From the sequence record OL956808.1: DNA of 64,000 nt. The stretch is one strand, 5' to 3'. The position numbers and the translations under genes were made by a program. The notes under the pieces are model-generated. The model made no database searches, was not told the origin of the DNA, and saw only the letters and a list, made by a program, of their open reading frames with translations. Below, piece after piece: positions 47,033 to 49,242 of this stretch. The stretch comes from Escherichia phage vB_EcoM-S1P5QW. Position 1 is the first letter of the stretch; the number at the start of each line of letters is the position of its first letter.

Positions 47033-47050
47033 TTTATAAGAGATTATGCT
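47027..47050 (+). promoter_or_regulatory. candidate MotA-dependent middle promoter
   Basis: TGCTTTA box followed 11 nt later by TATAAT inside an inverted repeat. Confidence 0.45.
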
Positions 47051-47087
47051 TTAATTTATTAGAGTATAATCTCTATGGAGGAAAAAC

Positions 47088-47285: not shown

Positions 47286-47675
47286 ATGACTAAAATTACT
47301 GTGAATTATACTGTTGATGTAAAAGATATTCAGCCAAAACACGTGCGTTCTGAATCAAATCCACAAAACCAAAATAAAATCCGTCGAGCATGGGTTTTGT
47401 CTCTTTCTGATAACGCAATGGAAGTTATTCAGAACAAAATTAAATCTGCACCTGCTCGTCATGCGTATTATGAAGCTATCGATCGTGAAGTAAGTAATAA
47501 ATGGATTGAACTAATGCGCAAACATACTACAGAATCTCTAAACGCCGGTGCTAAATTTATTATGACTTCATGTGGTGAACGCCTTGAAGATGATTATTGC
47601 GGTAATGCAGATGAACGTCTGATTGTTGCTGCACAAATTGTTGCGGAAACAATTGTGGCCGAGTTTAATAAATGA
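47286..47675 (+). CDS. rpbA: RNA polymerase binding protein RpbA
   Basis: 129 aa in the rpbA position between 46 and 45; length matches recalled T4 RpbA. Confidence 0.6.
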
Positions 47676-48559
47676 ATTTAGTATATCTTATTAGCTTTCC
47701 AGAGCGGGAAGCTAAAAATATTTTTCCGTGTTATTATATAGGTTCAAAAATTAACGCAATTTTCGATGGAACAAATATAATTGATTCAGCTGGAAAGATT
47801 TATACTGGAAGCGTGTCATCGAGTTATAGCGATGAATATTTTGAACTTATTAAAACCACTAAATATACCGTCAAAATTTTAGCTGAAACTATATTAGATC
47901 CAAGAAAATTGGAGAGATTTTTTCAATTAAAAGTTAAAGCAAAGAGTAATATAAAATATTTTAATAAAGCATACGCAGATGAAAATACTTTAATTGGTGC
48001 TAAAGGATATGGAACATATAAAAATGTTTTAACTGGAAAAATTGTAAAGCTTTCGCAATCTGAAATTACGCCTGAGTATGTCGGTATTCGTAAAGGTTAC
48101 AAACATAGTTCTGAAGTAAAATACAAAATATCTAATTCAATGAAGAATCACTGGACCGATGAGAAAAAGCTTAAACTCTCAAATAAGATGAAATTGAAAT
48201 ATCTTGATTGTAGTTATGCTAAAAAGTTTAGTGATATAATGAATTCAGAAAGTGTAAGATCAAAAATTTCTAAATCTCAAAAAGAATTATGGAATAATGC
48301 TGAAAGAAGACAGAGAGCTTCAATTCAAGCAACTGTTAGAAATAATTTACCGGAATTCAAATCAAAATTTAGAAAATCTAAAGCTAGAGGAACTTGGATT
48401 GAACATGAAGATGAATTAAAATCTTTATGGCATGCTTACGGAAAACCAAGTTATAATAAATTTCGTAAAATTGCAGTAGCTAATGGGTTTAACGACGAAT
48501 CTTATCAGGGTGCTGTACGGTCCTGGTCTAACTATTATGTAAATAGGAAATTGAAATGA
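47672..48559 (+). mobile_element. freestanding GIY-YIG homing endonuclease (Seg-like) between rpbA and gene 45
   Basis: 295 aa; GIY-YIG motifs (LVYLISF...CYYIGSK) and repeated NUMOD3-like C-terminal motifs; ATGA overlaps on both sides. Confidence 0.7.
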
Positions 48560-49242
48560 AATTATCTAAAGACACACTGAATATTTTGAAAAATTTCGCT
48601 ACTATTAACTCTGGCATTATGCTTAAATCAGGTCAATTTATTATGACTCGCGCAGTTAATGGTACAACTTATGCAGAAGCAAATATTTCTGACACTATTG
48701 ATTTTGATGTAGCGATTTACGATTTGAACGGTTTTCTCGGTATTCTGTCTCTAGTTAATGATGATGCAGAAATTTCCCAGTCAGAAGATGGAAATATTAA
48801 AATTGCTGATGCCCGCTCAACAATTTTTTGGCCAGCAGCCGATCCGAGTACAGTAGTTGCTCCTAATAAACCAATTCCATTCCCGGTAGCATCTGTTGTT
48901 ACTGAAATTAAAGCTGAAGACCTTCAACAACTGTTGCGTGTATCTCGTGGTCTGCAAATTGATACAATTGCTATCACGGTAAAAGAAGGTAAAATCGTAA
49001 TTAATGGTTTTAATAAAGTAGAAGATTCTGCTCTTACCCGTGTTAAATATTCTTTGACTCTTGGTGATTATGATGGTGAAAATACATTTAATTTCATTAT
49101 CAATATGGCAAATATGAAAATGCAACCAGGAAATTATAAACTTCTGCTCTGGGCAAAAGGTAAACAAGGCGCTGCTAAATTTGAAGGTGAACACGCGAAT
49201 TATGTAGTAGCTCTTGAAGCTGATTCTACCCACGATTTTTAA
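48556..49242 (+). CDS. 45: sliding clamp gp45
   Basis: 228 aa, N-terminus MKLSKDTLNILKNFATINSGIMLKSGQF as recalled for T4 gp45. Confidence 0.92.
   Translation: MKLSKDTLNILKNFATINSGIMLKSGQFIMTRAVNGTTYAEANISDTIDFDVAIYDLNGFLGILSLVNDDAEISQSEDGNIKIADARSTIFWPAADPSTVVAPNKPIPFPVASVVTEIKAEDLQQLLRVSRGLQIDTIAITVKEGKIVINGFNKVEDSALTRVKYSLTLGDYDGENTFNFIINMANMKMQPGNYKLLLWAKGKQGAAKFEGEHANYVVALEADSTHDF

Follow-up and report, generated by a model that had tools for sequence, protein, structure and literature searches.

A 64,000-nucleotide (nt) stretch of Escherichia phage vB_EcoM-S1P5QW (record OL956808.1), called the window throughout, carries an open reading frame (ORF) of 295 amino acids (aa) between rpbA and gene 45, the gene of the sliding clamp. 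The gene order around it is 46, 45.2, rpbA, ORF, 45, 44, 62, regA, and 43, and the ORF is treated here as a free-standing homing endonuclease gene (HEG). Its ATG (47672-47674) overlaps the TGA stop codon of rpbA (47673-47675), giving AATAAATGAATTT at 47672-47675 and AAATGAATT at 47670-47678. A preliminary description of the window had reported this ORF with ATGA overlaps at the rpbA stop and the gene 45 start, and both are seen in the sequence and in the ORF list. In phage T4 (NC_000866), rpbA and gene 45 are divided by a spacer of 55 base pairs (bp) with no gene in between, in agreement with the accompanying remark that T4 has no seg gene at this junction.

The spacer of HEG-free genomes measures 55 bp in Tequatrovirus, 42 bp in Mosigvirus, and 28 bp in Gaprivervirus. 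The insert extends from the rpbA stop codon to just upstream of the Shine-Dalgarno sequence of gene 45, and in a minority of T-even phages the HEG has replaced the 55-bp spacer. At the left junction, AAATGA is found at 5/5 HEG-carrying Tequatrovirus loci, compared with CGTTAA at 8/8 HEG-free loci. The GC content of the HEG is 29.1%, against 33-37% in the neighboring genes. Several database records label the gene 'homing endonuclease' and most label it hypothetical; literature searches found no paper describing an endonuclease at rpbA/45.

Protein family and domain organization

PHROG 655, labeled 'homing endonuclease', matches the ORF over its whole length (E 4e-33), and the N-terminal part of the protein shares 40% identity over 103 aa with T4 SegG (BLASTP pairwise E 1e-16), while tblastn with the HEG matches annotated segG genes (E 3e-9). 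An exhaustive hidden Markov model search of 1.84 billion cluster representatives returned 265 relatives at E<=1e-3, and residue conservation was read from an alignment of 124 relatives. The AlphaFold2 model built on the family alignment is confident, with a mean predicted local distance difference test score (pLDDT) of 90.3, and displays the GIY-YIG alpha/beta fold, a three-stranded sheet with flanking helices. Its structural matches include I-TevI and the GIY-YIG structures 9u75 and UvrC 1ycz, and Foldseek against viral models (BFVD) returned SegG, Gp32.1, and other GIY-YIG or Seg-like endonucleases. A single-sequence search of the PDB with the ORF gave no meaningful match; the family profile matches the I-TevI DNA-binding domain 1i3j at the NUMOD3 helix (E 2e-4). 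Functionally and by descent, the HEG is a Seg-type free-standing GIY-YIG endonuclease, with T4 SegG as its closest characterized relative and I-TevI as its closest solved structure.

The five Tequatrovirus copies are all intact. Their more diverged pairs differ by 8-15 synonymous and 0-7 non-synonymous changes, and the ratio of non-synonymous to synonymous substitution rates (dN/dS) among these pairs is 0.07-0.12, similar to that of the adjoining essential gene 45. By analogy with SegG, the ORF can be regarded with good confidence as a functional or recently functional homing endonuclease gene.

The residues given as family-invariant in Table 1 hold across all 124 family members, with V4, P19, I23, S25, K26, E81, and F97 nearly invariant, and every one of them is present in the window's protein. 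E81 is placed on the helix 77-87, and N98 lies within the motif YFN. In I-TevI, the catalytic R27 sits on the helix after strand 2, E75 binds metal, and N90 is conserved; from order and predicted secondary structure, E81 and N98 would be the equivalents of E75 and N90. The linker that follows has Y113, Y116, T121, G122, V125-L127, Y136, and V137 invariant among close homologs. In the helical region, three repeats of the type S-x-E-x3-K-x-S start at residues 146, 162, and 192. Among the 124 relatives, Pfam finds NUMOD3 in 88, SegE_GIY-YIG (PF19835) weakly in 7, and the I-TevI DNA-binding domain in 2; in the window's protein, NUMOD3 (PF07460) stays below threshold, with one stretch (aa 142-158) scoring 12.9 bits where 20.4 are required (E 0.11). 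The C-terminal three-helix module is the most conserved part among same-site orthologs (DNA 87% across genera), and relatives at other genomic sites do not carry it; it is presumed to be the target-recognition domain, with a DNA-binding role.

These results bear on the preliminary description in different degrees. Its central identification, a free-standing GIY-YIG homing endonuclease, is upheld by the PHROG 655 match and the SegG homology, and the pseudogene with a disrupted catalytic motif that it had envisaged is not what was found, the family-invariant residues and all five Tequatrovirus copies being intact. The GIY-YIG motifs are recognizable but diverged, reading LVY (residues 3-5) and YIG (residues 22-24), and no curated GIY-YIG model matches them. 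The NUMOD3-like C-terminal repeats exist as three repeats whose homology to NUMOD3 appears supported at family level only.

Table 1. Features of the rpbA-45 region, in window coordinates
Feature	Position	Strand	Remarks
rpbA, upstream host gene	47286..47675	+	97-100% identity to annotated Tequatrovirus genes
Left junction, last two rpbA codons recoded from CGT TAA to AAA TGA	47670..47675	+	Creates the ATGA overlap
HEG, ORF of 295 aa, ATG start	47672..48559	+	SegG-like, divergent GIY-YIG
N-terminal nuclease domain, aa 1-101	47672..47974	+	Family-invariant Y5, Y22, G24, Y44, S47, N98; near-invariant K26, E81
10-bp hairpin followed by T-rich run, HEG 5' coding region	47691..47715	+	Terminator-like, function uncertain
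Linker with three short beta strands, aa 113-138	48008..48085	+	AlphaFold2 secondary structure
Helical NUMOD3-like repeat region, aa 142-245	48095..48406	+	Presumed DNA-contact modules
C-terminal three-helix module, aa 246-289	48407..48538	+	Helices 246-255, 261-270, 276-289 (AlphaFold2)
Candidate MotA-dependent middle promoter, HEG 3' end, TGCTTAC-N12-TATAAT	48433..48457	+	~100 nt upstream of gene 45
Gene 45 Shine-Dalgarno AGGAAA within last HEG codons AAT AGG AAA (N-R-K)	48545..48550	+	AATAGGAAA invariant in all HEG-carrying lineages
Right junction, ATGA overlap of HEG TGA and gene 45 ATG	48556..48559	+	TTGAAATGAAA; same overlap in AV114, VR26, L023
Gene 45, sliding clamp, essential, downstream host gene	48556..49242	+	97-100% identity to annotated Tequatrovirus genes
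Gene 45 nt 7-27, HEG-linked substitution cluster	48562..48582	+	Putative homing or immunity site

I-TevI, encoded in the td intron of T4, resembles the HEG in combining a nuclease domain, a NUMOD3 minor-groove helix region, and a C-terminal helical DNA-binding module. It differs in being intron-encoded, whereas the HEG is free-standing, and the HEG has no identifiable R27 equivalent, no detected zinc finger, and a repeated, degenerate NUMOD3. The spacer from the GIY tyrosine to the YIG tyrosine is 17 residues in the HEG, compared with ~11 in I-TevI; SegG also has a longer spacer than I-TevI.

T4 SegG (formerly gp32.1) is an active free-standing GIY-YIG endonuclease encoded between genes 32 and 59 (PMC2988022, Table 1). 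It has in common with the HEG the variant motifs xVY ... YYIGSK ... Y-x-x-S ... E ... YFN, and both genes are promoter-less cassettes directly upstream of an essential replication gene. The segG ORF contains promoters of the downstream gene 32 (PMC2988022), a feature paralleled in the HEG by a conserved candidate only. As judged by analogy, the expression layout of the HEG mirrors the account given in a 2010 review of segG/gene 32 and of other T4 seg and mob genes (PMC2988022). The two differ in site (59/32 as opposed to rpbA/45), in length (210 aa as opposed to 295 aa, the C-terminal half of the HEG product being unrelated), and in target. Cleavage by T4 Seg enzymes can fall a long way from where their genes are inserted, and SegG, encoded at the 32/59 junction, has gene 32 as its target (PMC2988022), called a distant SegG cleavage site in the title of a cited reference, whereas the probable target of the HEG adjoins its insertion.

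Distribution, mobility, and decay

Prevalence was counted among phage records matching the flanks. At an identity of at least 95%, the HEG is present in 24 of ~504 Tequatrovirus records and in 10 of ~154 Mosigvirus records, and 3 of 34 Gaprivervirus records carry it (VR26 as two records, plus TH15). The Tequatrovirus records without it, ~95% of the total, match 62% of the query, the share made up by the two flanks alone. Mosigvirus and Gaprivervirus have full-length orthologs of about 54-61% protein identity at this very junction, and in a fourth, metagenomic T4-like lineage (P0004, locus L023; 58% identity) the HEG again lies between rpbA and 45, with stop and start codons overlapping. An RpbA-based search of viral contigs yielded 6 loci, all HEG-free, which were used as controls. 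Alignment of the junction across T-even genomes, the check proposed at the outset, accordingly revealed presence/absence polymorphism in Tequatrovirus, Mosigvirus, and Gaprivervirus, and the ORF belongs to a minority of records rather than to all relatives. The earlier wording of a lineage-specific insertion holds for the sparse occurrence within Tequatrovirus and the absence from T4, but not for the T-even group as a whole, where orthologs share one junction in four lineages.

The window's HEG differs from that of SHBML-50-1 by one synonymous change, although the left flanks of the two are only 94% identical, and several HEG-free phages match the window's left flank at 98-99%. In Mosigvirus, the copies of JM17 (L005, 1501-2392) and AV115 (L007, 1501-2395) are split into two ORFs by frameshifts, and decay of the HEG is under way in part of this population. 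Low frequency, one site shared by several lineages, the decay of some copies, and the near identity of others in unlike backgrounds together make up the signature that sequence comparison would lead one to expect of a homing element, short of proof of current activity. Distant relatives that share only the nuclease domain are found at the segG site by gene 59, by gene 49, and inside a split uvsX, a pattern that fits the usual modularity, in which the C-terminal half would set the site.

Individual copies show further variation. The FL18 copy is probably split as well, three hypothetical ORFs lying under the match, and those of AV114, AV109, and AV118 are intact. In VR26 (L006, 1501-2388), GenBank and RefSeq place the start of the 'putative DNA endonuclease' at an internal ATG (locus position 1756), which leaves a 210-aa product without the nuclease domain; the complete homolog of 295 aa begins with a GTG that overlaps the rpbA stop (GTGA) at 1501.

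Other nucleases were encountered in and around the same set of genes. In three metagenomic T4-like contigs (L026, 2501-3469; L027, 2501-3469; L028, 1353-2321), the uvsX gene is interrupted by P0005, a HEG relative of 322 aa whose N-terminal half shows 40% identity. A RecA_N ORF precedes it, and it is followed by a T4_UVSX_C ORF, which in one contig has a weak Intein_splicing match; the locus looks like an endonuclease-split recombinase gene. The HEG-carrying phage N2 (L017, 1-530 and 2227-2943) has, between 46 and 45.2, an HNH endonuclease on the opposite strand and, upstream of 46, a 'homing endonuclease', and HEG-carrying GRNsp7 (L016, 481-1335) has a 285-aa ORF between 46.1 and 46. The replication/recombination cluster is a hot spot for genes of selfish nucleases.

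The start of gene 45 and the embedded expression signals

When the 5 HEG-carrying Tequatrovirus loci were compared with the 8 HEG-free ones, perfect linkage to HEG status was found at two position sets only, rpbA nt 385-389 (CGTTAA to AAATGA) and gene 45 nt 7, 9, and 18. The gene 45 changes, CTG to TTA and GAT to GAC, are both synonymous. Differences between HEG-carrying and HEG-free alleles of gene 45 concentrate near its start in Tequatrovirus (3/13 within nt 7-18, binomial P 1e-3), in Mosigvirus (13/22 within nt 9-26, P 1e-15), and in Gaprivervirus (8/16 within nt 9-27, P 3e-9); the stretches were picked after seeing the data, and the pattern repeats in three genera. In HEG-carrying members of Mosigvirus, Gaprivervirus, and the fourth lineage, TCT AAA (Ser-Lys) has become AGY CGT (Ser-Arg), which combines the substitution K5R with a switch of serine codon family. 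Over the first 27 nt of gene 45, T4 and one HEG-free Mosigvirus allele differ at 2 positions; HEG-carrying and HEG-free Mosigvirus alleles differ at 13/18 positions in the cluster. Because the latter figure is far above the gene-wide inter-genus divergence of ~25%, passive co-conversion from an ordinary relative cannot alone explain the cluster. No further HEG-linked cluster was found within ~1 kb on either side, as read from the near identity bins, the ungapped 100-nt bins being unreliable past ~600 nt leftward owing to indels.

The earlier suggestion that gene 45 is a plausible homing target gains support, short of proof, from these HEG-linked substitutions at nt 7-27 in three genera. On the sequence evidence, the balance tilts modestly toward a target that includes gene 45 nt ~1-27. 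The stretch recognized or cut probably also takes in the gene 45 Shine-Dalgarno sequence and the spacer, and the recoding would protect HEG-carrying genomes. The same-site orthologs (AV114 group, VR26, TH15, and P0004/L023) share with the Tequatrovirus copy the conserved C-terminal module, the embedded MotA-box/-10, and the Shine-Dalgarno sequence, and they differ in the more radical recoding of gene 45 (K5R), compared with 3 synonymous changes alongside the Tequatrovirus copy.

A further polymorphism occupies gene 45 codons 7-11 (window 48576-48588, nt 21-33), where HEG-free Tequatroviruses have either the T4-type ACT ACT GCT CTG CTT (TTALL) or the slur03-type ACA CTG AAT ATT TTG (TLNIL). The TLNIL-type haplotype occurs at 5/5 HEG-carrying loci examined, and TTALL/TLNIL is a second, older polymorphism adjoining the putative target.

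The T4 middle promoter P45 was identified experimentally, with its start at T4 coordinate 32626 (PMC2988021, Table 1). This position falls within the T4 rpbA-45 spacer, which contains AATTGCTTTA-N12-TAAAAT, annotated as a promoter in phage Lutter, and insertion of the HEG removes P45. Where the window's HEG has the candidate MotA-dependent promoter, the copies of Mosigvirus, Gaprivervirus, and L023 read TTGCTTTA-N12-TATATT, i.e. (T/A)TGCTTTA-N12-TATATT, and the embedded site fits the MotA-box consensus and its spacing of 12±1 bp to the -10 element (PMC2988021). By its sequence, it is a candidate replacement promoter for gene 45. The Shine-Dalgarno sequence supplied by the HEG has its counterpart in HEG-free genomes, which carry (A)AGG(A/T)AA a corresponding distance ahead of the gene 45 start codon.

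No recognizable promoter or Shine-Dalgarno sequence belongs to the HEG itself. In each of the four lineages, the HEG start lies over or next to the rpbA stop codon; VR26 uses GTG as its start codon, and in AV114 a gap of 5 nt intervenes. A search for late promoters (TATAAATA) found none in or near the HEG, and a sigma-70 scan of the region stayed at chance level (11 sites, 12.4 expected). Farther upstream, after the gene 46 stop and before 45.2, a perfect MotA-box/-10 (TGCTTTA-N11-TATAAT) is located at window 47047-47072, where the mapped T4 middle promoter P45.2 would be expected to lie; judging by its sequence, it is the probable source of transcripts reaching the HEG.

The hairpin in the HEG 5' coding region recalls the internal terminators reported for mobE and segF, but it is weak statistically: its fold is not clearly better than that of shuffled sequences (z = -1.3 over 81 nt, -2.2 over 90 nt), its register is not conserved, and it is absent in Mosigvirus. 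Stable hairpins do occur within the first ~70 nt of the HEG in three of the four lineages, each in its own register, with stems of 10 bp in the window, 12 bp in VR26 (L006, ~1528-1563; z -2.8) and 8 bp in L023 (~2524-2548; z -0.75), and the AV114 5' region has none.

Proposed mechanism, alternatives, and significance

The HEG is an intact and, by analogy with its characterized relative, probably active free-standing homing endonuclease of the T4 SegG clade. As a cassette devoid of its own promoter, it would be read from promoters farther upstream, P45.2 for example, and, because it has no Shine-Dalgarno sequence of its own, translated at a low level through coupling to the rpbA stop codon. In mixed infection, the enzyme would cut HEG-free genomes at or beside the rpbA-45 junction, the likeliest site including the first ~27 nt of gene 45, and repair from the HEG-carrying genome would copy the HEG with a short flanking tract. 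Loss of the spacer and the recoding of gene 45 codons 3-9 would make HEG-carrying genomes immune. Disruption of the host would be limited because the HEG 3' end carries a candidate replacement MotA-type middle promoter and the gene 45 ribosome-binding site, and with these two signals embedded in it, deletion of the HEG would be costly.

Several observations weigh against parts of this account, beginning with the enzyme itself. The Pfam search of the ORF gave no GIY-YIG family (PF01541, PF19835) even at E<=10, and the NCBIfam search gave no match. As T4 SegG is likewise unmatched by the Pfam and NCBIfam GIY-YIG models, these negatives are a property of the SegG clade and, like the PDB result, were not counted against membership in the family. 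No equivalent of the catalytic arginine R27 was identified in the 124-member alignment, where K26 is the sole conserved Arg/Lys between G24 and E81 and Y44 and S47 are invariant instead, and catalytic competence consequently rests on analogy with SegG. The hhalign comparison of the family profile with an I-TevI sequence, which agrees in its DNA-binding segment with the 1i3j alignment, aligned the NUMOD3 helix only (aa 169-205, probability 63%) and not the catalytic domain. The unmatched curated models and the missing arginine lend something to the idea of a domesticated, non-mobile remnant, whose protein would be without cleavage activity or would only bind DNA and which would be kept for the gene 45 promoter and ribosome-binding site; embedded signals that make deletion costly have been invoked to explain retention of T4 HEGs (PMC2988022). 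This idea is nevertheless improbable, for purifying selection acts on the whole protein (dN/dS ~0.1), which a mere DNA spacer would not need, the family-invariant residues shared with active SegG are all intact, and the low prevalence at one site in four lineages, together with near-identical copies in divergent flanks, suggests recent movement. Almost no credence attaches to the notion that the ORF arose by chance, was mis-called, or is a small gene of another kind: AT-rich genomes do yield long spurious ORFs and no Pfam domain exceeds threshold here, but 265 homologous cluster representatives, the PHROG match, a confident fold matching I-TevI, and the dN/dS ratio speak otherwise; dN/dS together with homology led to the rejection of a chance ORF and of a pseudogene alike.

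The remaining difficulties concern the target and the embedded promoter. The HEG-free phages RPN226 (L021, 1445-1525) and LH2 (L022, 1446-1525) carry the gene 45 variant of HEG-carrying Tequatroviruses, ATGAAATTATCTAAAGACACG. The three Tequatrovirus changes are therefore not exclusive to carriers, and the alleles of these two phages may be resistant, recombinant, or of an ancestral background. Both retain the rpbA-45 spacer with the P45 promoter, that of RPN226 with the changes TATAGAAT, an extra T, and TTAAATG in place of the TTACATG seen elsewhere. The clustered substitutions could in part be hitch-hiking co-conversion tracts rather than immunity changes. Taken further, all flank differences in gene 45 and rpbA would be passive scars of co-conversion or recombination with a divergent donor, and the real cut would fall at some other place, perhaps at a distance of hundreds of bp, like the cuts of SegG and SegF. 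Besides RPN226 and LH2, this accords with the ability of T4 Seg enzymes to cut at a distance, exemplified by SegG and gene 32 (PMC2988022), and with the only 3 nt that separate HEG-carrying from some HEG-free Tequatrovirus alleles in the stretch. It is at odds with the extent of the Mosigvirus divergence, with a serine codon-family switch that preserves the amino acid, and with the recurrence of changes in the same short stretch in all lineages and in no other cluster nearby; we consider it unlikely, though a good deal less so than a remnant kept for its signals. As regards the promoter, the conservation of the embedded site is confounded because it overlaps conserved protein-coding sequence, and loose MotA-like patterns are common, with 24 on the + strand of the window.

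As a probably active Seg-type enzyme, the rpbA/45 HEG is an ordinary addition to a well-known class of selfish genes. Its target definition and embedded signals are tidy and fully precedented; no general principle is changed, and each trait is already on record for T4 seg and mob genes. The rpbA/45 junction enters the catalog of T-even mobile elements as a new insertion site, occupied by an uncharacterized, unnamed Seg-type endonuclease, and the gene offers a clean example of an HEG coding sequence that carries a host gene's ribosome-binding site and, as a candidate, its promoter. For annotation, it illustrates that the SegG clade is invisible to the Pfam and NCBIfam GIY-YIG models, most records saying 'hypothetical protein'.

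The probable recognition site is narrowed to ~20-30 bp at the start of an essential gene, which makes the target directly testable, and public genomes provide a natural experiment with four diverged enzyme lineages, one junction, and matched HEG-carrying and HEG-free genomes. RegA-mediated repression acts at the initiation regions of genes in the gene 45 cluster. A more far-reaching proposition, which we regard as rather doubtful, is that the homing site is the gene 45 translation-initiation region itself, and that carriage of the HEG has repeatedly forced recoding of the first nine codons in four T-even lineages, including the serine switch and K5R, and replaced P45 with the embedded promoter. 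If this is true, a selfish element rewires transcription of the sliding clamp and possibly its translational control, and the timing of replication and late transcription in HEG-carrying phages could shift measurably.

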